A stretch of DNA of 51,169 bases, from IMG/VR virus record IMGVR_UViG_2526164628_000012, one strand, 5' to 3'. The position numbers and the translations under genes were made by a program. The first letter of the stretch is position 1; each line of letters begins with the position of its first letter. Positions 5,726-35,076 of the stretch are shown here, in pieces. This stretch comes from a virus (lineage: Duplodnaviria; Heunggongvirae; Uroviricota; Caudoviricetes). Below the pieces are notes generated by a model, which had not been told where the DNA came from, made no database searches, and saw nothing but the letters and a program-made list of their open reading frames with translations.

Positions 5726-5797
5726 GTTGACCTCATTTCCCCTTAACGCCGGGGTAGCGGAACAAAAGTAAGCGGCTCGTCAGAACCGTATTGATAT

Positions 5798-7369
5798 TTA
5801 CTGAGAGCTCAGATCAACTTTCCAGGGCAACAGATCGCGTACCCGGTTTGCCGGCCAGTCCTGGATATGTTCAATGACGTAGCGCAGCCACTTTTCTGGC
5901 TCCACATTGTTCAGACGGCATGTGCCGATCAGCGAGTACAACACCGCCGCATGTTCACCACCGCTGTCGGAACCCGCGAACATCCAGTTTTTCCGGCCTA
6001 CGGCCACTCCCCGTAAGGCGTTCTCTGCGATGTTGTTGTCGATTTCCACCCAGCCATTACTGCAGTACACGTTCAGTGCATCCCACTGTTTCAGCAGGTA
6101 TGCGAACGCTTTTGCCGTATCTGAGTGACGCGACAGTGTTTTCATCTGTTGCTGTATCCAGTCATACAGTGACTGCATCAGTGGCGCGGCTCTGGTTTTT
6201 CTTGCCGCCAGACGCTGTTCTGCTGAACAGCCCCGGACCTCTGCCTCGATGGCATACAGTTCACCGATACGCTGCAGGGCTTCCGTGGTGATGTCGGTGG
6301 GCGCTCTTGCATGCACATCGTGGATTTTTCTCCGGGCATGAGCCATACACGCGGCTTCCGTTATTCTGCCGGATTCGTATAACGCCCGGTAACCACCGTA
6401 AGCATCGGCCTGAAGCACACCGCTGTAACCGGCCAGGTGATTTTGTGGATGGATACCTTTCCGGTCCGGACTGTACGCGAACCAGACCGCCGGGGGCATC
6501 TGTGAACCGGCGTTACGGTCATCACGGACGTAGACCCACAGCCGGGCTGTCCGGGTTTTACCGCTGCCCGGCTCCTGGACCGGGACGGGGATATCATCAG
6601 CATGGACTTTACCGGGCATCAGCACATACTGGCGCAGGACGTCATACAGCGGCTCCAGTAGTTCAGCAACGGCACCTGTCCAGCGCCCCAGTGTGGCACG
6701 GCTCAGCTCCACACCCTGACGGCGGTATATCTCTGACTGGCGGTATAACGGCAGATGGTCTGCATATTTTCCGGTGACGACATGGGCCAGGAGCCCCGCT
6801 CCGGCATAACTGCGTGCAATGGGTTTTGAAGGTACTGGTGCCTGCACGATATGGTCGCACCGACAACAGGCCAGTTTCGGACGTTGTGTTTCGATAACCT
6901 TAAAGGCGCTGCTGATAAGCTCCAGTTGCTCTGACACATCACATCCCAGAGAACTGAGTTCACCACCACAGGCAGGACAGCATTCCTCTTCCGGCCGGAT
7001 AACCCGGGTTTCACGGGGAAGTGAGGCCGGTAACGGTTTACGGGCTGAAGACTGGCGCAGGGCGGATGGCAGTACCGGGTCATATTGCTCACCCAGCGTT
7101 TCCGCCATTTCTTCCTGAAGTGCGCTGATTCGCTCCTGTGCTTCCTGTATCTGCCGTTCGGTTTTTGCACGAAGTTTTTCTGAGCTTTTACCGAACTGCA
7201 TACGTTGCAGTTTCGCAACCAGCGCCTTCAGCCGGTTGATTTCGGAAGCATAAGCCGCCACCCGCTGTGAGAGCAGGCGGTTGTATTCAGCCATCTGGCG
7301 TATGGTGTCCTGTTGCGTCTGCAACAGTGCCCGCAGGCGGGCGTTCTCATGAGCAAGTGAGGTGTCCAT
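5798..7369 (-). CDS. IS66-family transposase (orf3/TnpC), 523 aa
   Basis: Characteristic IS66 transposase length and arrangement; identical protein in second copy. Confidence 0.85.
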
Positions 7370-7388
7370 ATCCTCACTTTACAACGGG

Positions 7389-7736
7389 TTATATGCGGAT
7401 TCCAGCGCGTTCCGTTCGTTTCGGGTGCTTCCAGTTGATACCTTCAAGAAGCATGGATAACTGAGCCGGAGTAAGGTGCACCTTGCCGTCACGGGTGACT
7501 GGCCAGACGAAGCGGCCCCGCTCCAGGCGTTTGGTGAAGAGGCACAGTCCGTCACTGTCAGCCCACAACACTTTTATCTGGTCACCCCGGCGTCCGCGGA
7601 AGATGAACAGGTGTCCGGAGAACGGGTCATCCTTCAGGACGTTCTGAACTTTTGATGCCAGGCCGTTAAAGCCATTTCGCATATCGGTGATACCTGCAAC
7701 CAGCCAGATACGCGAACCTGCAGGGAGAGATATCAT
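7389..7736 (-). CDS. IS66-family Orf2 (TnpB), 115 aa
   Basis: Middle ORF of IS66 three-gene arrangement. Confidence 0.8.
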   Translation of the reverse strand: MISLPAGSRIWLVAGITDMRNGFNGLASKVQNVLKDDPFSGHLFIFRGRRGDQIKVLWADSDGLCLFTKRLERGRFVWPVTRDGKVHLTPAQLSMLLEGINWKHPKRTERAGIRI

Positions 7737-8413
7737 CAGTGGCTGCTCCCTTTTATTTCGCGGATAAGTGTCTGTAATAACGCCGGCGTCAGTTTACCTT
7801 TAAGCCTGAGAGTTCCGGCCGGCAGAACCAGCTCACAACACAGACTGTCGGACGGTGTATTTATCTGCTCTGGTTCCTGTGCGGGGGCCGGGATTTTATT
7901 ATCCGGCTCCGGCGTTAACGTCACGGGAAGCAGTGCCGGCATATTTTTTCCGGAAGGCAGCAGGCCACCTTTCCGGTATTGATGGCGCCAGTTGAAGAGC
8001 AGGTTATCGTTGATTCCGTTTTCCCGGGCGATCTGCGCCACACAGGCTCCGGGCTGCAGTGACTGCTCCACTAAGGCGATTTTAAACTCATAAGGGAAGT
8101 TGGGCCGCCGGGGACGTTTTTTTACCACGGGGGCTTCGGATATAACGGTGCTTTCAGGACGTACGACTGGTACCGTGGAAAATTGTCCGTAAAGGCAGGC
8201 ATCAAGTTCCTGCTCCGACATGCCTGCGGGCAAAGGCCACGAAAGGCCAGCTCTCCGAAAGCGCACGAACATACTACAAACTGTTGATTTTGGTACACCC
8301 AGGCGACGCCCGGCCACAACCCGGGGTAAATGTTCTTCAAAGTGAAGACGTAAAGCTTCAGTGATCCAGGTCCGGTGTTTCATACGATAGTGTCCATTAA
8401 AAATGATGGACAT
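7736..8413 (-). CDS. IS66-family Orf1 (TnpA), 225 aa
   Basis: First ORF of IS66 arrangement; overlaps orf2 start. Confidence 0.8.
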   Translation of the reverse strand: MSIIFNGHYRMKHRTWITEALRLHFEEHLPRVVAGRRLGVPKSTVCSMFVRFRRAGLSWPLPAGMSEQELDACLYGQFSTVPVVRPESTVISEAPVVKKRPRRPNFPYEFKIALVEQSLQPGACVAQIARENGINDNLLFNWRHQYRKGGLLPSGKNMPALLPVTLTPEPDNKIPAPAQEPEQINTPSDSLCCELVLPAGTLRLKGKLTPALLQTLIREIKGSSH

Positions 8414-8618
8414 TATTTTTGTAGAGCCGGAGGAAACAGACCAGACGGTTTAAATGAGCCGGTTACGAACAAAAACCTGCTGCATAGTTATTAAAGTTGA
8501 ACCCTGCCGTCATGTTCTTACGCCTCGGGCTGGCTACTTAACCCCTGACCACTGCCTGGTAACTCGAAGTATTGCCCTGCATTCTGTGGGGCGGGGGGGG
8601 TTGGTATGAAAAGAAGGA

Positions 8619-8697: not shown

Positions 8698-9116
8698 CTA
8701 TGATGCGTTTTGTGCTTTCTTTTTACGGATTTCTTCGTAGATCATATTGTAATACTGTTTTTTCTCTTCAAGAGTTTTTAATAATTTATCCGCTTCACTT
8801 TCTGGCAGTTCGTCTAAGAGATCTAAAAAAATACGTTGTCGTGGCGTTAGAACCCTTGTTTCATAACTGGAGGCTGTGTTCGTTGATGATGAAACGATAC
8901 CATCCATCCATCCCCGGGGTAACCCAAAGGACTCTTCGATAATCTCCACCATATCATCAGCGATCCGTTTTTTCCCTTTTTCCCCTCTGGGTACAACATT
9001 CTTGATACATAAGAAGGCTCGCGCCCGATCTTTCTGGCCACGTTAACCGCTTTACCATCGCATTTCTCATCACGAATTTTGATGAGTTGCTGTCGTCTAA
9101 ATTCATATTTGTCCAT
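8698..9116 (-). pseudogene. DicA/CI-like HTH repressor, frameshifted
   Basis: Two overlapping ORFs (8847-9116 and 8698-8952) form one repressor-like protein if one base is added to the A6 run in GGGAAAAAAC (plus-strand T6 near 8967-8972); C-terminus resembles DicA. Confidence 0.55.
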
Positions 9117-9187: not shown

Positions 9188-9216
9188 TTCTTTGCTGTGT
9201 TTACTAAGGAGTAGCT

Positions 9217-9498
9217 ATGGAAGAATTAAGAATATTTCTCAATTCTCTTTCGTCAGATGAACAGCGTATGTTTGCATGCGAGTGTGGTACCAGCATCGGT
9301 TATCTAAGAAAGGCATTGAGTAAAGGTCAAGTGTTAGGGGCATCGTTATGTGTCCTTATTGAGCGAGCCAGTAATGGTGAAGTTACACGTCAGCAACTAA
9401 GGCCTTTTGATTGGATGAATATTTGGCCCGAGCTGGAAGATACCAAAACGTTAACACAACCACTTTCTAGGAGCTTGATTCATGAAAATCAAGCATGA
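9217..9498 (+). CDS. Cro/DicC/YdaS-like HTH regulator, 93 aa
   Basis: Divergent from repressor; motif pattern resembles DicC/YdaS family. Confidence 0.6.
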   Translation: MEELRIFLNSLSSDEQRMFACECGTSIGYLRKALSKGQVLGASLCVLIERASNGEVTRQQLRPFDWMNIWPELEDTKTLTQPLSRSLIHENQA

Positions 9499-9907
9499 AC
9501 ACATCCGCATGGCGATGAATGTCTGGGCGCATCCGGACGGCGAAAAAGTGCCGGCTGCGAAAATTACCAAAGCGTATTTCGAGCTGGGAATGACGTTCCC
9601 GGAACTGTATGACGACAGCCATCCGGAAGCCCTGGCCCGTAATACCCAGAAAATTTTCCGTTGGCTGGATAAAGACACCCCTGATGCTGTTGAAAAAATG
9701 CAGGCTCTGTTACCGGCGATCGAAAAGGCGATGCCGCCTTTGCTGGTGGCCCGTATGCGTAGCCACAGTTCTGAATATTACCGTGATATCGTCGAACGGA
9801 GGGATCGGCTGGTGAAGGATGTCGATGATTTTGTTGCGTCAGCGGTTGTTTTGTATGACCAGATGAATCGCGGCGGCCCGGCAGGGAATGCTGTGGTGAT
9901 GCACTAA
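9482..9907 (+). CDS. YdaT-like protein (CII-analogue position), 141 aa
   Basis: N-terminus MKIKHEHI and C-terminal VVMH resemble recalled Rac YdaT; follows the cro-like gene as in Rac. Confidence 0.55.
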   Translation: MKIKHEHIRMAMNVWAHPDGEKVPAAKITKAYFELGMTFPELYDDSHPEALARNTQKIFRWLDKDTPDAVEKMQALLPAIEKAMPPLLVARMRSHSSEYYRDIVERRDRLVKDVDDFVASAVVLYDQMNRGGPAGNAVVMH

Positions 9908-9914
9908 AAGCACG

Positions 9915-10892
9915 GTGTTCGGGGGTTTTATGAGCAGCAAGCTTCATGGTCTTGTCTGGGAAGGGTGCGCCTTCACCGGCATGATCTTATCCAGGGTGGC
10001 GGTTATGGCCCGTCTTGCAGACTACAGCAATGACGAGGGCGTGTCATGGCCTGCCATTGAAACTATCCGGCGTCAGATCGGTGCAAGAAGTGAATCCACA
10101 GTGAAATCGGCTATTGCAGAACTGGCGAAAGAGGGCTGGCTGACGAAGGAAGAGCGTAAGGTCGGTGGGCGTAATGTAAGCAATATCTATCGGCTTAATG
10201 TGGAAAAACTCGAAGCAGCTGCGGCGGCGGCGCGTGAGTCATATAAACCGAAAAGAAAAATTAGCCCGGCAAAAAATGACCCGTTAACAGTTGACCCGTC
10301 AAATATTGACCCCTCAACGGTTGACCCGTCAAATTTTGATGGATCAACTGTTGATAAAAAACTGCCGATTAGGGGGCCGATGATTGACCCCGATCCGTCA
10401 GTATTAAAACCTGATCCGTCAGATAAAAGATCTTCTTGTCCGGACGCTTCGCAACCGGACCCGCAGACGGCTGAACAGGATTTTTTAACCCGACACCCTG
10501 ACGCGGTTGTGTTCAGTGCGAAAAAACGCCAGTGGGGAAGTCAGGAAGATTTGGTGTGCGCACAGTGGATCTGGGGACGAATCGTGAGTCTTTACGAGCA
10601 GGCGGCCAGCTATGATGGCGAGATCACTAGACCGAAAGAACCCAACTGGACAGCATGGGCCAATGACGTTCGCACAATGCGGATGCTGGATGGCAGAACT
10701 CACAGACAAATTTGTGAAATGTTTGGGCGTCTCCAGCGGGATTCGTTCTGGGTAAAAAACATCATGAGTCCGGCAAAACTCCGGGAAAAATGGGATGAAC
10801 TGGTTATCCGCCTGGGGCGTTCGCCTGCGCAGCGTTGCGTGAATCACATTTCTGAACCGGACACTGAAATTCCGCCGGGCTTCAGGGGGTAA
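9915..10892 (+). CDS. Replication initiator (O-like) with embedded origin iterons
   Basis: Winged-helix-like N-terminus; internal 15-bp iterons encode VDPSN peptide repeats; probable true start ATG 9930. Confidence 0.6.
   Translation: MFGGFMSSKLHGLVWEGCAFTGMILSRVAVMARLADYSNDEGVSWPAIETIRRQIGARSESTVKSAIAELAKEGWLTKEERKVGGRNVSNIYRLNVEKLEAAAAAARESYKPKRKISPAKNDPLTVDPSNIDPSTVDPSNFDGSTVDKKLPIRGPMIDPDPSVLKPDPSDKRSSCPDASQPDPQTAEQDFLTRHPDAVVFSAKKRQWGSQEDLVCAQWIWGRIVSLYEQAASYDGEITRPKEPNWTAWANDVRTMRMLDGRTHRQICEMFGRLQRDSFWVKNIMSPAKLREKWDELVIRLGRSPAQRCVNHISEPDTEIPPGFRG
10277..10425 (+). repeat. Origin-like iterons: TGACCCNTNAAC repeated at 15-bp spacing plus additional GATCCGTCAG repeats
   Basis: Direct repeats at 10277, 10292, 10307, 10322 (and degenerate 10337), further repeats 10383-10421, inside the initiator gene as in lambda O/ori. 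Confidence 0.5.
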
Positions 10893-10932
10893 GTGTTAAT
10901 TTCTGGTCATGAGGTAATTTTCAGGAGGGCTT

Positions 10933-11355
10933 GTGGCAAAAGTTTTTACACAAGAAGAGCGGGAAAAAATTAAAGGGCAGGTTGTTGAACTCGTACGCCA
11001 GAGTGGGCGCGAGACGTTACGACAACTGGAAACTAAAACTGGGGCAACAAGATATCTGATGAGCGTTCTGGCCAGAGAGCTGGTTGCCAGTGGCGATGTA
11101 TACAACTCTGGTTACGGGTTATTCCCGTCTGAACAGGCGCGTAAGGACTGGCAAAATGCCCGTAAAAAGCTCTCAAGGGCAAAGCTGAAGAAACCATCTG
11201 CGGTTGATCCGGACCTTATCTGGTCATTACCTGACGGAGAAATACGTCGCTACGACAGGCGCCTAAACATAATCTGTCGCGAGTGCCGGAAGAGTGAAGC
11301 TATGCAGCGTGTACTGGCGTTTTATCAGGGGAATTTTGAGGAGGTGGTGCGGTGA
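10933..11355 (+). CDS. Hypothetical phage protein, 140 aa
   Basis: ORF following replication initiator; no Walker motifs seen. Confidence 0.45.
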   Translation: MAKVFTQEEREKIKGQVVELVRQSGRETLRQLETKTGATRYLMSVLARELVASGDVYNSGYGLFPSEQARKDWQNARKKLSRAKLKKPSAVDPDLIWSLPDGEIRRYDRRLNIICRECRKSEAMQRVLAFYQGNFEEVVR

Positions 11356-11606
11356 GTGAATCAAAATGCCAGGTTAATGGCAACAAGATAGAACCATGTG
11401 CAGCACTGGCAAAGTCCCTTGAGCGTGATGCTGAATACACGATGCGAAAAGGTCTGCTGATATACAAAATCTGGAATGAGAGTTTAACTCGCGGTCCTGA
11501 TTTTGTGATGTTGCGTTCCGGTGAATTTTCTAAATTACCAGTTCGGGTTTCATTTTGTCCGTTCTGTGGTGAAAGTCTGAAAACGTGGGAGAACAGAAAT
11601 GAATGA
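11352..11606 (+). CDS. Hypothetical protein, 84 aa, CxxC-containing
   Basis: Overlapping start/stop with neighbours; C-terminal CPFCGE motif. Confidence 0.45.
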   Translation: MSESKCQVNGNKIEPCAALAKSLERDAEYTMRKGLLIYKIWNESLTRGPDFVMLRSGEFSKLPVRVSFCPFCGESLKTWENRNE

Positions 11607-11910
11607 AATTAAAGAAATACCAGTAGTACGTGATGAATATGGCTACTGGACGCATCCTGAATATGAAAAATTCTGTGACGGTCGGGAATATATTTCAACG
11701 GAAGAGTTTAACGCCTGGATGGAGGAAAATAATCTTCAATACGTCCTCTGCTTCAGAGATGAAGGATGTGCTGACCTTGATGCGTGTGATGCTGATATTT
11801 CTGCATGGGAACCGGAACGACCAGAGGGCAATGGATGGTTTATTGGTTCAATACATGACACCGAAGATGGCCCGGTTTGTGTATGGCTGAGAAATAAGGC
11901 CGAAGCATAA
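11599..11910 (+). CDS. Hypothetical protein, 103 aa, Cys-rich
   Basis: ORF in nin-like small-gene array. Confidence 0.45.
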   Translation: MNEIKEIPVVRDEYGYWTHPEYEKFCDGREYISTEEFNAWMEENNLQYVLCFRDEGCADLDACDADISAWEPERPEGNGWFIGSIHDTEDGPVCVWLRNKAEA

Positions 11911-17340: not shown

Positions 17341-18131
17341 AGGCTTTTTAATTTGTGGTAATGGGCGGCTGGTGGGTGTTAGCGGCACCTGCCAGCCATC
17401 TGCTCATGCGTTGGGGTCACAAGCAAACCTCAGGCCCATCTGCTTTGCGCAAAAGCGGTATGAGCCTATCAGAGAAGTGCTTATTGATCTATGATTAATA
17501 CTGTAAAAATATCCAGTTGTGAGTTAATCAACGCTGATTGCCTGGAGTTTATCCAGACCTTACCGGAAAACTCTGTCGATCTGATAGTCACAGACCCGCC
17601 ATACTTTAAAGTGAAGCCCGAGGGCTGGGATAACCAGTGGGAGGGCGACGATGATTACCTGAAATGGCTGGACCAGTGTCTGGCGCAGTTCTGGCGGGTA
17701 CTGAAGCCTGCCGGAAGTCTTTACCTGTTCTGTGGTCATCGCCTGGCATCTGACACCGAAATCATGATGCGTGAGCGCTTTAATGTGCTGAACCACATTA
17801 TCTGGGCGAAGCCGTCCGGACGCTGGAACGGGTGCAATAAGGAAAGTCTGCGGGCGTATTTTCCGGCAACAGAGCGCATTCTGTTTGCAGAACATTATCA
17901 GGGACCGTATCGCCCGAAAGATGATGGCTATGTGGAGCAGGGGCGCGAGCTAAAACAGCACGTCATGGCCCCGCTGATTTCTTACTTTCGTGATGCGCGT
18001 AAATCACTGGGAATAACGTCAAAACAGATAGCGGAAGCCACCGGAAAGAAAAACATGGCTTCGCACTGGTTTGGTGCTGAACCGCCCCGGGAATCCTGGA
18101 GACTAAACTCCCTGAGAAAGAGGTAAACAGG

Positions 18132-18458
18132 ATGACTAAAAATACTCGTTTTTCCCCCGAAGTCCGTCAGAGGGCGATTCGTATGGTTCTGGAAAGTCAG
18201 GGCGAATATGACTCACAGTGGGCGGCAATTTGTTCCATTGCCCCAAAGATTGACTGTACACCGGAGACTCTGCGTGTCTGGGTACGCCAGCATGAGCGGG
18301 ATACCGGAGGCGGTGATGGCGGGCTCACCACCGCTGAACGTCAGCGTCTGAAAGAGCTGGAACGTGAAAATCGTGAACTGCGCCGCAGTAACGATATCCT
18401 TCGCCAGGCTTCCGCTTATTTTGCGAAGGCGGAGTTCGACCGCCTCTGGAAAAAGTGA
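18132..18458 (+). CDS. IS3-family transposase OrfA, 108 aa
   Basis: HTH/leucine-zipper OrfA typical of IS3 family; recalled as IS629 OrfA. Confidence 0.8.
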
Positions 18459-19345
18459 TGCCACTGCTGGATAAGCTGCGTAAGCTGTACGGGGTCGGAC
18501 CGGTATGCAGTGAACTACATATTGCCCCGTCAACGTATTACCACTGTCAGCAACAGCGACATCATCCTGATAAACGCAGTGCCCGTGCGCAGCGCGATGA
18601 CTGGCTGAAGAAAGAGATACTGCGCGTATACGATGGGAATCATCAGGTATACGGTGTGCGTAAAGTCTGGCGTCAGTTGTTACGGGAAGGAATCAGGGTA
18701 GCCAGATGTACAGTGGCGCGCCTCATGGCGGTTATGGGACTTGCCGGTGTTCTCCGGGGTAAAAAGGTCCGCACTACCGTCAGCCGGAAAGCCGTTGCCG
18801 CAGGCGACCGCGTAAACCGTCAGTTTGTGGCAGAACGTCCTGACCAGTTGTGGGTGGCTGATTTTACTTACGTCAGCACATGGCAGGGGGTCGTCTATGT
18901 GGCGTTCATCATTGATGTGTTTGCCGGATACATCGTGGGGTGGCGGGTCTCATCGTCTATGGAAACGACATTCGTGCTGGATGCTCTGGAGCAGGCGTTA
19001 TGGGCCCGTCGACCGTCCGGCACAGTCCATCACAGTGATAAAGGTTCTCAGTATGTATCGCTGGCCTACACACAGCGGCTTAAGGAAGCCGGATTACTGG
19101 CATCAACAGGAAGTACTGGTGACTCGTATGACAACGCGATGGCGGAGAGCATCAATGGCCTTTACAAAGCGGAGGTAATACACCGTAAGAGCTGGAAAAA
19201 CCGGACAGAAGTGGAACTGGCCACACTCACGTGGGTGGACTGGTATAACAATCGACGATTGCTGGAAAGGCTGGGCCATATCCCACCGGCAGAAGCAGAA
19301 AAAGCTTATTATGCTTCCATCGGAAACGATGATCTGGCAGCCTGA
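18455..19345 (+). CDS. IS3-family transposase OrfB (DDE), 296 aa
   Basis: DDE integrase-like catalytic ORF overlapping orfA. Confidence 0.8.
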
Positions 19346-19903: not shown

Positions 19904-19979
19904 GGCCCTTTAGCTCAGTGGTGAGAGCGAGCGACTCATAATCGCCAGGTCGCTGGTTCAAATCCAGCAAGGGCCACCA
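19904..19979 (+). tRNA. tRNA with CAU anticodon (Ile2/Met-type, ileZ-like)
   Basis: Cloverleaf folded by hand: acceptor GGCCCTT/AAGGGCC, anticodon loop CTCATAA, CCA end. Confidence 0.8.
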
Positions 19980-19986
19980 TCACATA

Positions 19987-20063
19987 CCGCCATTAGCTCA
20001 TCAGGATAGAGCGCCAGCCTTCGAAGCTGGTTGCGCGGGGTTCGAGTCCTCGATGGCGGTCCA
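19987..20063 (+). tRNA. tRNA-Arg (anticodon UCG)
   Basis: Acceptor CCGCCAT/ATGGCGG, anticodon stem CCAGC/GCTGG with loop CTTCGAA, TTCGAGT T-loop, CCA end. Confidence 0.75.
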
Positions 20064-20076
20064 TTATCTGTACCCT

Positions 20077-20153
20077 GCGTTGTTAGCTCAGCCGGACAGA
20101 GCAATTGCCTTCTAAGCAATCGGTCACTGGTTCGAATCCAGTACAACGCGCCA
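20077..20153 (+). tRNA. tRNA-Arg (anticodon UCU)
   Basis: Acceptor GCGTTGT/ACAACGC, anticodon loop CTTCTAA, TTCGAAT T-loop, CCA end. Confidence 0.8.
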
Positions 20154-31970: not shown

Positions 31971-32162
31971 AACATACTGAATTCCGTGCAGCCGTACTGG
32001 ATGCACTGGAGAAGCATGACACCGGGGCGACGTTTTTTGATGGTCGCCCCGCTGTTTTTGATGAGGCGGATTTTCCGGCAGTTGCCGTTTATCTCACCGG
32101 CGCTGAATACACGGGCGAAGAGCTGGACAGCGGTAAGCGGCTCGTCAGAACCGTATTGATAT

Positions 32163-33734
32163 TTACTGAGAGCTCAGATCAACTTTCCAGGGCAACAGAT
32201 CGCGTACCCGGTTTGCCGGCCAGTCCTGGATATGTTCAATGACGTAGCGCAGCCACTTTTCTGGCTCCACATTGTTCAGACGGCATGTGCCGATCAGCGA
32301 GTACAACACCGCCGCATGTTCACCACCGCTGTCGGAACCCGCGAACATCCAGTTTTTCCGGCCTACGGCCACTCCCCGTAAGGCGTTCTCTGCGATGTTG
32401 TTGTCGATTTCCACCCAGCCATTACTGCAGTACACGTTCAGTGCATCCCACTGTTTCAGCAGGTATGCGAACGCTTTTGCCGTATCTGAGTGACGCGACA
32501 GTGTTTTCATCTGTTGCTGTATCCAGTCATACAGTGACTGCATCAGTGGCGCGGCTCGGGTTTTTCTTGCCGCCAGACGCTGTTCTGCTGAACAGCCCCG
32601 GACCTCTGCCTCGATGGCATACAGTTCACCGATACGCTGCAGGGCTTCCGTGGTGATGTCGGTGGGCGCTCTTGCATGCACATCGTGGATTTTTCTCCGG
32701 GCATGAGCCATACACGCGGCTTCCGTTATTCTGCCGGATTCGTATAACGCCCGGTAACCACCGTAAGCATCGGCCTGAAGCACACCGCTGTAACCGGCCA
32801 GGTGATTTTGTGGATGGATACCTTTCCGGTCCGGACTGTACGCGAACCAGACCGCCGGGGGCATCTGTGAACCGGCGTTACGGTCATCACGGACGTAGAC
32901 CCACAGCCGGGCTGTCCGGGTTTTACCGCTGCCCGGCTCCTGGACCGGGACGGGGATATCATCAGCATGGACTTTACCGGGCATCAGCACATACTGGCGC
33001 AGGACGTCATACAGCGGCTCCAGTAGTTCAGCAACGGCACCTGTCCAGCGCCCCAGTGTGGCACGGCTCAGCTCCACACCCTGACGGCGGTATATCTCTG
33101 ACTGGCGGTATAACGGCAGATGGTCTGCATATTTTCCGGTGACGACATGGGCCAGGAGCCCCGCTCCGGCATAACTGCGTGCAATGGGTTTTGAAGGTAC
33201 TGGTGCCTGCACGATATGGTCGCACCGACAACAGGCCAGTTTCGGACGTTGTGTTTCGATAACCTTAAAGGCGCTGCTGATAAGCTCCAGTTGCTCTGAC
33301 ACATCACATCCCAGAGAACTGAGTTCACCACCACAGGCAGGACAGCATTCCTCTTCCGGCCGGATAACCCGGGTTTCACGGGGAAGTGAGGCCGGTAACG
33401 GTTTACGGGCTGAAGACTGGCGCAGGGCGGATGGCAGTACCGGGTCATATTGCTCACCCAGCGTTTCCGCCATTTCTTCCTGAAGTGCGCTGATTCGCTC
33501 CTGTGCTTCCTGTATCTGCCGTTCGGTTTTTGCACGAAGTTTTTCTGAGCTTTTACCGAACTGCATACGTTGCAGTTTCGCAACCAGCGCCTTCAGCCGG
33601 TTGATTTCGGAAGCATAAGCCGCCACCCGCTGTGAGAGCAGGCGGTTGTATTCAGCCATCTGGCGTATGGTGTCCTGTTGCGTCTGCAACAGTGCCCGCA
33701 GGCGGGCGTTCTCATGAGCAAGTGAGGTGTCCAT
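32163..33734 (-). CDS. IS66-family transposase (orf3/TnpC), 523 aa
   Basis: Identical protein to copy 1. Confidence 0.85.
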
Positions 33735-33753
33735 ATCCTCACTTTACAACGGG

Positions 33754-34101
33754 TTATATGCGGATTCCAGCGCGTTCCGTTCGTTTCGGGTGCTTCCAGT
33801 TGATACCTTCAAGAAGCATGGATAACTGAGCCGGAGTAAGGTGCACCTTGCCGTCACGGGTGACTGGCCAGACGAAGCGGCCCCGCTCCAGGCGTTTGGT
33901 GAAGAGGCACAGTCCGTCACTGTCAGCCCACAACACTTTTATCTGGTCACCCCGGCGTCCGCGGAAGATGAACAGGTGTCCGGAGAACGGGTCATCCTTC
34001 AGGACGTTCTGAACTTTTGATGCCAGGCCGTTAAAGCCATTTCGCATATCGGTGATACCTGCAACCAGCCAGATACGCGAACCTGCAGGGAGAGATATCA
34101 T
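33754..34101 (-). CDS. IS66-family Orf2 (TnpB), 115 aa
   Basis: Identical to copy 1. Confidence 0.8.
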   Translation of the reverse strand: MISLPAGSRIWLVAGITDMRNGFNGLASKVQNVLKDDPFSGHLFIFRGRRGDQIKVLWADSDGLCLFTKRLERGRFVWPVTRDGKVHLTPAQLSMLLEGINWKHPKRTERAGIRI

Positions 34102-34778
34102 CAGTGGCTGCTCCCTTTTATTTCGCGGATAAGTGTCTGTAATAACGCCGGCGTCAGTTTACCTTTAAGCCTGAGAGTTCCGGCCGGCAGAACCAGCTCA
34201 CAACACAGACTGTCGGACGGTGTATTTATCTGCTCTGGTTCCTGTGCGGGGGCCGGGATTTTATTATCCGGCTCCGGCGTTAACGTCACGGGAAGCAGTG
34301 CCGGCATATTTTTTCCGGAAGGCAGCAGGCCACCTTTCCGGTATTGATGGCGCCAGTTGAAGAGCAGGTTATCGTTGATTCCGTTTTCCCGGGCGATCTG
34401 CGCCACACAGGCTCCGGGCTGCAGTGACTGCTCCACTAAGGCGATTTTAAACTCATAAGGGAAGTTGGGCCGCCGGGGACGTTTTTTTACCACGGGGGCT
34501 TCGGATATAACGGTGCTTTCAGGACGTACGACTGGTACCGTGGAAAATTGTCCGTAAAGGCAGGCATCAAGTTCCTGCTCCGACATGCCTGCGGGCAAAG
34601 GCCACGAAAGGCCAGCTCTCCGAAAGCGCACGAACATACTACAAACTGTTGATTTTGGTACACCCAGGCGACGCCCGGCCACAACCCGGGGTAAATGTTC
34701 TTCAAAGTGAAGACGTAAAGCTTCAGTGATCCAGGTCCGGTGTTTCATACGATAGTGTCCATTAAAAATGATGGACAT
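34101..34778 (-). CDS. IS66-family Orf1 (TnpA), 225 aa
   Basis: Identical to copy 1. Confidence 0.8.
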   Translation of the reverse strand: MSIIFNGHYRMKHRTWITEALRLHFEEHLPRVVAGRRLGVPKSTVCSMFVRFRRAGLSWPLPAGMSEQELDACLYGQFSTVPVVRPESTVISEAPVVKKRPRRPNFPYEFKIALVEQSLQPGACVAQIARENGINDNLLFNWRHQYRKGGLLPSGKNMPALLPVTLTPEPDNKIPAPAQEPEQINTPSDSLCCELVLPAGTLRLKGKLTPALLQTLIREIKGSSH

Positions 34779-35076
34779 TATTTTTGTAGAGCCGGAGGAA
34801 ACAGACCAGACGGTTTAAATGAGCCGGTTACGGACAGCGATACCTGGCAGGCGGAGCTGCATATCGAAGTTTTCCTGCCTGCTCAGGTGCCGGATTCAGA
34901 GCTGGATGCGTGGATGGAGTCCCGGATTTATCCGGTGATGAGCGATATCCCGGCACTGTCAGATTTGATCACCAGTATGGTGGCCAGCGGCTATGACTAC
35001 CGGCGCGACGATGATGCGGGCCTGTGGAGTTCAGCCGATCTGACTTATGTCATTACCTATGAAATGTGAGGACGCT

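Follow-up and report, generated by a model that had tools for sequence, protein, structure and literature searches.

Where does a lambdoid prophage of Escherichia coli begin to replicate its DNA, and by which route is the helicase brought there? This question is raised by a stretch of 51,169 nucleotides (as a whole called the window here) from the virus record IMGVR_UViG_2526164628_000012 of IMG/VR, assigned to the Caudoviricetes. Positions 9200-11400 of the window are part of such a prophage; the open reading frame (ORF) 9930-10892 encodes an O-like replication initiator of 320 amino acids (aa), and a row of 15-bp repeats is located inside this gene. An original prediction, made from the letters of the DNA, had taken these repeats for origin iterons arranged as in phage lambda. 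With a probability of roughly 80%, we regard positions ~10270-10460 as the replication origin of the prophage, situated where its own initiator gene encodes a linker and representing a variant without a helicase loader gene. This assignment relies on comparisons of sequences and predicted structures.

The repeats were examined with Tandem Repeats Finder, which detected five copies of a 15-bp period (10256-10339); the best score was obtained for a 30-bp period with 84% matches. The ORF matches PHROG 391 with an E-value of 4e-115, and direct repeats of 15 bp in an O-like ORF, as originally predicted, were thus recovered. The units lie in frame and are translated as DPLTVDPSNIDPSTVDPSNFDGSTVD, a peptide of the predicted VDPSN type which constitutes aa 116-140 of 320 and separates the N-terminal from the C-terminal domain. 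The repeat proposed earlier is real, but its core, previously given as TGACCCNTNAAC, is better written with palindromic arms as TTGA-N4-TCAA. This pattern was found six times in the 51-kb window, and four of the six copies belong to the array, where they keep a perfect 15-bp phase; in 200 Markov simulations, the mean was 1.0 per window, with never more than 2 within 75 bp. The iteron repeats are real and non-random. No comparable repeat cluster was detected elsewhere in a scan of the initiator region. At a spacing of 15 bp, about 1.4 helical turns separate adjacent sites; alternate sites are found on the same face of the helix, which fits the 30-bp super-period. Two matches to DnaA boxes with one mismatch each (10199 and 10349) were seen near the array as compared to about 0.5 expected by chance and were rejected as not meaningful.

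Because the units are palindromic and one of them is inverted, the array as a whole shows dyad symmetry centred at 10319 (10286-10352). As single-stranded DNA, this segment folds into a 67-nt hairpin of -16.9 kcal/mol with a z-score of about -5 on both strands. The hairpin may be a by-product, or it may represent a cruciform or a structure resembling a primosome assembly site.

A set of homologues was collected comprising 80 loci from different Enterobacterales species (N-terminal domain 54-78% identical) and six phages, and repeat units were counted by anchoring on [DE]xS. Tandem [D/E]-x-S-x-x units were present at the array position in 76 of 81 distinct genes. The repeats could in principle be a low-complexity protein linker (D-P-S-x-x)n generated by slippage, the DNA periodicity being a by-product without function in cis: a peptide with a 5-aa period is read in frame in all homologues, it is predicted to be disordered, and its copy number is variable. 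Codon usage argues against this explanation. Within the 81 genes, the repeat serine is encoded by TCA in 276 of 307 units (90%) and by TCG in the other 31, and AGC, AGT, TCC and TCT were never found; serine codons outside the repeats of the same genes are TCA in 15% and AGY in 49%. Residue 2 of the unit varies widely (A, P, T, G, R, V, L, Q, E, H or D) and so does residue 5 (S, F, P, N, I, T, Y or V), whereas the bases T-GA...TCA-A are fixed: GA at positions 1-2 and TC at positions 7-8 are invariant, A accounts for 83-97% in the run at positions 9-12, and T is found at position 15 in 75% of units.

The orientation of the units provided further evidence. In the subfamily of the window (Erwinia, Mixta, Edwardsiella, Morganella), arrays mix TTGACCCCTCAA with its exact reverse complement TTGAGGGGTCAA, and this switch alters the peptide from IDPS to VEGS. 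Mixed orientations would be expected for a symmetric DNA site and have no apparent reason in a peptide repeat. The array of Edwardsiella anguillarum (L017, 2852-2986) is organized as a 45-bp higher-order repeat in which the order forward-forward-reverse occurs three times (TTGACCCCTCAA/TTGACCCCCCAA/TTGAGGGGTTAA).

Codon identity at positions encoding the same amino acid was determined from a codon-based alignment that comprised the window and seven members of the subfamily. It amounted to 0.84-0.97 over 10290-10440 as compared to 0.3-0.5 in both folded domains and reached its peak of 0.94-0.97 in a second repeat element (GATCCGTCAG) and the following AAAAGATCTTCTTGTCC. Silent-site conservation in the non-repetitive part, 10350-10440, thus exceeds that of the repeats themselves, contrary to what a slippage-born linker would predict. 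Furthermore, initiator alleles of E. coli encode 320, 315, 310 or 305 aa and differ by whole units of 5 aa (15 bp), and two of the alleles P0002-P0019, namely P0013 and P0019, carry one GATCCGTCAG copy fewer; hence, the number of sites is polymorphic within the species. A scan of IMG/VR with the N-terminal domain yielded 80 copies that do not differ from the window and therefore serves as a measure of abundance, not of divergence. The TCA bias, the two orientations, the silent-site conservation and the whole-unit allele differences show that the constraint acts on the DNA; the peptide repeat follows passively from translation of this element and is tolerated in the linker. The original prediction had named conservation of the peptide alone as the outcome that would speak against it; the homologues conserve DNA periodicity, codon choice, both orientations and silent sites. 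Slippage of a protein linker appears largely refuted by the codon-level data and is very improbable.

To the right of the array, the original prediction had noted further repeats, and a pair of GATCCGTCAG direct repeats was indeed located at 10392-10401 and 10413-10422, 21 bp apart. This second element was found in every homologue examined, with a spacing of 21, 24 or 12 bp. The inverted repeat that follows is also maintained in homologues: its arms are kept, and changes are confined to the loop. AT content was 55-70% in 10395-10440 and 65-70% in 10330-10365, and 20-bp windows peaked at 70-75%. Four GATC sites at 10342-10429 form the densest cluster of the window and were considered solely since a motif containing GATC is kept across homologues; as a hallmark of an origin, such a Dam-site cluster was dismissed, four sites per 100 bp being matched by 110 of 200 simulations.

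The right arm resembles that of phage phi80. In phi80, AGTATTAAAAGATCTTCGTCCG stands directly right of the annotated gp15 sites, and the motif AGTATTAAAAGATCTTC...GTCCG is common to phi80 and the window nearly base for base; if the second GATCCGTCAG copy is skipped, 17 consecutive bases are identical. A blastn comparison of the two initiator genes revealed no other nucleotide similarity. In the records of lambda and phi80, four initiator-binding sites are annotated within the initiator gene just past the N-terminal domain, that is, at the same relative place as the array of the window.

These findings bear on another explanation, namely that the initiator-bound sites are an operator or handcuffing element for autoregulation and copy control, or an incompatibility determinant, and that the true origin is located elsewhere. 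Plasmid iterons also serve autorepression and handcuffing, which provides a precedent, and no strong AT-rich unwinding element adjoins the sites. Against it stand the homology in position and sequence to the origins of lambda and phi80, which are located within O and gene 15, respectively, the right-arm motif of the phi80 type and the conserved inverted repeat beside the sites, and the lack of another comparable cluster in the scanned initiator region. Such a purely regulatory role is improbable.

The initiator protein was analyzed for its domains. A Pfam scan identified an N-terminal HTH_36 domain (a helix-turn-helix, HTH, family) and a weak DnaD_N match only. An AlphaFold2 model built on 38 homologues comprises a winged HTH domain (aa 1-104), a disordered segment (aa 110-180, predicted local distance difference test score, pLDDT, 30-43), a helical domain (aa 205-295) and a disordered tail (aa 298-320); the iterons together with the GATCCGTCAG element (aa 116-164) are encoded wholly inside the predicted disordered segment. 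The best Foldseek matches of the N-terminal domain were winged-helix regulators of the MarR, PadR and ArsR types, which usually bind palindromic sites as dimers. With the full-length model, Foldseek found generic winged-helix regulators only, none of them at E <= 0.001.

For the C-terminal part, BLASTP with aa 153-300 yielded 35% identity to lambda O over 148 aa (E 5e-26) and 36% identity to phi80 gp15 (E 4e-26). This domain had no match in Pfam or among PDB sequences, and its identity was established solely by direct comparison with these two proteins. The N-terminal domain of the lambda type, Phage_rep_O (PF04492), is absent according to Pfam, and BLASTP detected no N-terminal similarity to lambda O or gp15. 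Rep_3, the double winged-helix family of RepA and pi, gave no Pfam match, and the model of the initiator contains a single winged HTH domain; the likeness to Rep proteins of iteron plasmids is functional only. The lambda O/ori arrangement claimed earlier is supported by the homology of the C-terminal domain and the equivalent place of the iterons.

Mosaic relatives were compared to find out which protein reads the sites. Phage mEp460_ev081 (L003) shares 10423-11330 with the window at 88%, i.e. the C-terminal domain and the downstream DUF977 gene; its N-terminal domain is different, it carries four copies of GGTCAAAATG at the spot of the array, and the mosaic junction falls at 10423. Phages vB_EcoS-640R1 and Tritos (L001 and L002) share the cII-like gene at 86% and a block consisting of the tail codons plus DUF977 at 94%, and they possess another initiator body with five GTCACG repeats at a spacing of 10-11 bp. 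The DnaT-like tail and DUF977 together thus form a separate mosaic block. In these relatives, the repeats travel with the N-terminal domain and not with the cII-like gene, the C-terminal domain or DUF977; N-terminal domain and iterons constitute one exchangeable unit. Such an arrangement for origin specificity is familiar in lambdoid phages.

Reading of the repeats by another protein of the module, either the cII-like YdaT protein or the DUF977 winged-helix protein, was considered since both neighbours are predicted to bind DNA. The three mosaic phages share DUF977, and L001 and L002 share the cII-like gene as well, and yet all three carry a different N-terminal domain and different repeats; the cII-like gene does not co-vary with the iterons because it is 86% identical at the nucleotide level in phages whose repeats differ. 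Relatives with the same repeats but without DUF977 were found as well. We consider a reader other than the initiator hardly credible.

How the helicase is delivered was addressed by a search for loader genes. Neither lambda P nor phi80 gp14 nor a phage DnaC-like protein found a counterpart in the window by tblastn, and no canonical Walker A motif was present among the window ORFs of at least 80 aa. The 140-aa protein encoded downstream of the initiator had been described originally as lacking loader motifs, and our results agree: it is a member of DUF977 (PF06163, E 6e-29 over residues 1-135) and of PHROG 142, its C-terminal 20 aa are identical to the C-terminus of lambda Ren at 12 positions (60%), and its AlphaFold2 model shows a winged HTH plus a small domain with Foldseek matches to GntR, MarR and IclR regulators. 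As a hidden loader, DUF977 was rejected on the grounds that Pfam recognizes DUF977 only, Walker A is missing, and the fold matches regulators. In phiSTEC1589 (L004), DUF977 is found together with a DnaC-like gene, and many relatives without a loader, e.g. SfIV and phiNP, lack it. A literature search on the function of DUF977, LygF and YdaW yielded nothing useful.

An initiator gene without an adjacent loader gene was also found in SfII, SfIV, phiNP, YeP1, Tritos and mEp460. All of these are inducible or isolated phages; hence, this layout is viable. Since the window contains no P-like or DnaC-like gene, reliance on the host loader would be the natural conclusion.

The last 21 residues of the initiator, AQRCVNHISEPDTEIPPGFRG, are identical at 16 of 21 positions to the C-terminus of E. 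coli DnaT and also match that of Klebsiella DnaT (DnaT entries 2ru8, 6aep and 9zbt_D of the PDB). Only positions 159-179 of the NCBIfam DnaT model (PRK02854) are matched, with 16.7 bits as compared to a cut-off of 201. Beyond the tail, no similarity was detected to DnaT with its N-terminal oligomerisation domain, acidic linker and three-helix ssDNA-binding domain, and a profile of the C-terminal domain found no DnaT chain in the PDB. The same tail terminates O-like proteins with unrelated N- and C-terminal domains.

The type of tail was compared with the nature of the next gene at loci L011-L017, L065 and L071 versus about 45 others. A lambda-type tail (NTDWxDG..., WNxxxxWExxL) occurred at 8 loci and was followed by a homologue of lambda P or phi80 gp14 in 8 of 8 cases. 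A GFR[G/S/T] tail was present at about 45 loci; none of them continued with a P homologue, and in one case a DnaC-like gene was located 7 nt further on. Fisher's exact test gave p ~1e-9, a value not corrected for relatedness. In IMG/VR, an O gene ending with LDLTNTDWIYGVDL (TDWIYGVDL) precedes 79 of 79 lambda-P loci; the underlying scan returned 80 copies of lambda P and was used for checking the tail, not for divergence. A third tail type, AWNxIWKE...Q, was observed with neither P nor DnaC nearby. Within one family of C-terminal domains, the window and its Edwardsiella and Erwinia relatives differ essentially in the tail and the presence of P only. These data suggest that the tail selects the route of helicase delivery and that a DnaT-like tail may use the host route of the DnaC type, in agreement with the original prediction, which had considered reliance on host DnaC. 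More tentatively, the tail of ~20 residues common to DnaT and phage initiators could be a portable adaptor for host DnaB-DnaC or another primosome component which renders a P-type loader dispensable. A full-text literature search for the tail motif PPGFRG returned nothing.

The helicase might also arrive without host DnaC or the tail as its docking site for DnaB-DnaC: the C-terminal domain might contact DnaB directly, the tail might bind PriA or PriB of the restart primosome, or a phage loader might have escaped recognition. Hairpin-type structures are what PriA recognizes at primosome assembly sites, and the array can adopt the 67-nt hairpin described above; such a hairpin is an expected by-product of palindromic units. 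The C-terminal domain of DnaT docks on PriA (PMC13377028), and DopC possesses the DnaT motif and yet is paired with a P-like protein (PMC5509034). On the other hand, no candidate loader ORF was found in the window, and in phiSTEC1589 an initiator with this tail is followed after 7 nt by a DnaC-like gene, as in the dnaT-dnaC operon of the host. We regard these other routes as rather unlikely, and delivery by the host loader remains the preferred explanation.

Function and architecture of the locus appear to follow the familiar design of lambda and phi80, with an origin in the gene, iterons with dyad symmetry, an exchangeable N-terminal domain and an O-type C-terminal domain. It departs from this family by the lack of a Phage_rep_O N-terminal domain and of an adjacent P gene, by its DnaT-like tail, and by short 12-bp sites in 15-bp phase. 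In lambda, too, the origin is situated inside the initiator gene directly after the N-terminal DNA-binding domain, several iterons possess internal dyad symmetry, the C-terminal domain is homologous, and the gene order is cro-cII-O-...-ren-like. Furthermore, an A/T-richer stretch and an inverted repeat stand right of the iterons in the window; the corresponding part of ori-lambda contains an A-rich stretch and an inverted repeat, too. The two differ in the N-terminal domain (HTH_36 winged helix versus Phage_rep_O), in the sites (12 bp at 15-bp spacing versus 18-19 bp at 20-24 bp), in P, which is present in lambda (O-P-ren) and absent from the window, in the A/T-rich element, which is weaker in the window, and in the tail (IPPGFRG versus TDWIYGVDL). 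Phage phi80, which has the related C-terminal domain and right arm, differs by its P-like gp14, by iterons of ~15 bp at 21-bp spacing of the GGAAAA/TTCCCG type, and by its N-terminal domain.

The N-terminal domain is 62-67% identical in SfII and SfIV of Shigella, phiNP of Citrobacter, YeP1 of Yersinia and prophage-derived phages of Klebsiella. This group likewise has 15-bp units with the core TGAC-N3-TCA-AAA followed by GATCCGTCA repeats, it lacks an adjacent loader gene, and most of its initiators end with GFRG, GFRS or GFRT. It deviates from the window by unit flanks of the form CTGAC...TCAAAATC, by the peptide DxSKS instead of VDPSN, by a Phg_2220_C domain at the C-terminus of some members, and by downstream methyltransferases in place of DUF977. 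E. coli DnaT (primosomal protein I) is nearly identical to QRCVNHISEPDTEIPPGFRG in its last ~20 residues, and the host dnaT-dnaC pair is mirrored by the pair of a GFRG-ending initiator and a DnaC-like gene in phiSTEC1589. At forks, DnaT acts together with PriA and PriB independently of sequence, whereas the protein of the window is predicted to bind an origin specifically.

No description of this origin was found in the literature, and RefSeq names the initiator a helix-turn-helix domain-containing protein only. In the Eru regions of Stx phages, a YdaT-family gene followed by an HTH_36 protein likewise stands next to cI; these modules were treated as non-lambdoid, without O and P, and with replication roles unknown (Llarena et al., BMC Genomics 2022, PMC8951638). 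Unlike this description, the HTH_36 protein of the window carries a lambda-O-type C-terminal domain and an internal putative iteron origin.

The 2.2-kb region 9200-11400 was found at a coverage of at least 80% in 936 of 5,426 complete E. coli genomes, with an identity of 99.6% in the EPEC strain E2348/69 and 99.1% in ST131 strains. In E2348/69, the prophage adjoins ompW and encodes integrase, excisionase, exonuclease, dicB, repressor, early regulators, Q, RusA and lysis genes; the RefSeq start of the initiator in this strain corresponds to 9930 of the window. The rightward early operon begins at the cro-position gene and reads into the initiator gene. Both RefSeq and Pfam call the product of 9482-9907 a toxin of the YdaT family, although the gene occupies the cII position and belongs to a CII-like PHROG class; in this context, the label may be misleading. 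DUF977 is followed at 11352-11910 by two small conserved phage ORFs without assigned function (PHROG 4030 and PHROG 1372), the first of which is annotated in E2348/69 as a pseudogene with an internal stop. The features of the replication region are compiled in the table.

Table. Features of the replication region in window coordinates (a dot denotes an element without strand).
Feature	Position	Strand	Remarks
cro-position regulator, YdaS-like HTH	9217-9498	+	Pfam YdaS_toxin weak match; PHROG 35 'transcriptional repressor'
cII-position gene, YdaT family	9482-9907	+	Pfam YdaT_toxin E 3e-10; PHROG 163 'CII-like transcriptional activator' E 5e-47
Initiator gene, O-type, 320 aa, putative origin inside	9930-10892	+	PHROG 391 'replication initiation O-like' E 4e-115
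N-terminal winged-helix DNA-binding domain, aa 1-104, presumed iteron reader	9930-10241	+	Pfam HTH_36; pLDDT 75-90
Iteron array	10276-10362	.	five 12-bp sites TTGA-N4-TCAA in 15-bp phase (10276-10347) plus half-site at 10351
Iteron site	10276		ATGACCCGTTAA; degenerate
Iteron site	10291		TTGACCCGTCAA
Iteron site	10306		TTGACCCCTCAA
Iteron site	10321		TTGACCCGTCAA
Iteron site	10336		TTGATGGATCAA; nearest to reverse orientation
Iteron half-site	10351		TTGATAAAAAAC
Second repeat element	10384-10422	.	TTGACCCCGATCCGTCAG + CCTGATCCGTCAG; GAY-CCG-TCA core, one GATC each
Right arm	10423-10459	.	A-rich/GATC stretch ATAAAAGATCTTCTTGT, then inverted repeat GTCCGG-N11-CCGGAC (10437-10459)
C-terminal lambda-O-type domain, aa 183-297	10476-10820	+	BLASTP versus lambda O and phi80 gp15
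DnaT-like C-terminal tail	10830-10889	+	QRCVNHISEPDTEIPPGFRG; matches last 21 residues of DnaT; predicted disordered
DUF977/LygF/Ren-like accessory gene, 140 aa	10933-11355	+	Pfam DUF977; PHROG 142 'Ren-like exclusion protein'

Several other features of the window concern the state of the prophage. The repressor-position gene (8698-9116, minus strand) shows a 1-bp deletion in the A-run 8968-8974 as compared to E2348/69 (A7 to A6 on the coding strand), which breaks it up into two ORFs that overlap (89 and 84 aa). The difference may reflect a genuine frameshift, a tract prone to slippage or an error in sequencing. An IS66-family insertion sequence (IS) of 2,704 bp, which comprises a 523-aa DDE_Tnp_IS66 transposase and accessory ORFs, is present in two copies at 5768-8471 and 32133-34836 with 99.9% identity, one located 230 bp from the repressor gene and the other in the late region. 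A transposase of the IS3 family (rve integrase core, HTH_21) was identified at 17491-19345 between the replication genes and a tRNA cluster consisting of Met-CAT, Arg-TCG and Arg-TCT at 19904-20153. Rows of tRNA genes upstream of late and lysis genes are frequent in lambdoid and Stx-type prophages. The IS66-family insertions, the IS3-type transposase and the frameshifted repressor gene make it likely that this prophage copy is defective. The putative origin is itself intact and shares 99.6% identity with its counterpart in E2348/69.

If the locus is an origin, initiation could proceed as follows. Dimers of the initiator N-terminal domain would bind the TTGA-N4-TCAA sites at 15-bp spacing and the related GATCCGTCAG sites. 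A nucleoprotein complex resembling the O-some would form and distort the adjacent right arm, which is moderately A/T-rich and contains GATC. Transcription from the early rightward promoter through the initiator gene would probably assist, as in lambda. Finally, host DnaB-DnaC would probably be recruited through the C-terminal domain and the DnaT-like tail, the phage encoding no loader of the P or DnaC type; this is the least certain step.

Several points weigh against an active origin here or against a role of its tail in helicase delivery. A strongly A/T-rich unwinding element is missing, which makes the case weaker than the classical lambda picture; with only 55-70% AT in the right arm, the unwinding element is weak and the start of unwinding therefore uncertain. 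The IS insertions and the frameshifted repressor gene may mean that the origin never fires in this copy of the prophage. The covariation of tail and P gene could in part reflect physical linkage, since the codons of the tail directly adjoin the neighbouring gene, and the loci counted include close relatives. The exclusion of P by a DnaT-like tail is not universal because the O-like DopC with its C-terminal DnaT motif sits beside a P-like gene (Brezellec et al. 2017, PMC5509034). Moreover, the DnaT tail has been described only as a flexible tail of 20 residues (PMC5778457), and preprimosome structures of 2026 leave the recruitment of DnaB-DnaC unresolved and favour the N-terminal domain of DnaT (PMC13377028).

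Recognition of the gene as an O-type initiator with an internal origin provides a usable annotation, and TTGA-N4-TCAA at 15-bp phase is a compact, defined site for binding studies. It also predicts which prophages depend on helicase loading by the host, which may affect the dynamics of induction. Through the DnaT-like tail, a question of replication restart, namely the partner of the DnaT tail, becomes accessible to simple genetics. If the tail were indeed an adaptor, the phage proteins would indicate the contact, long sought, through which DnaB-DnaC is passed from DnaT to DNA, and the host dnaT-dnaC pair would seem to be descended from a phage module of initiator and DnaC.

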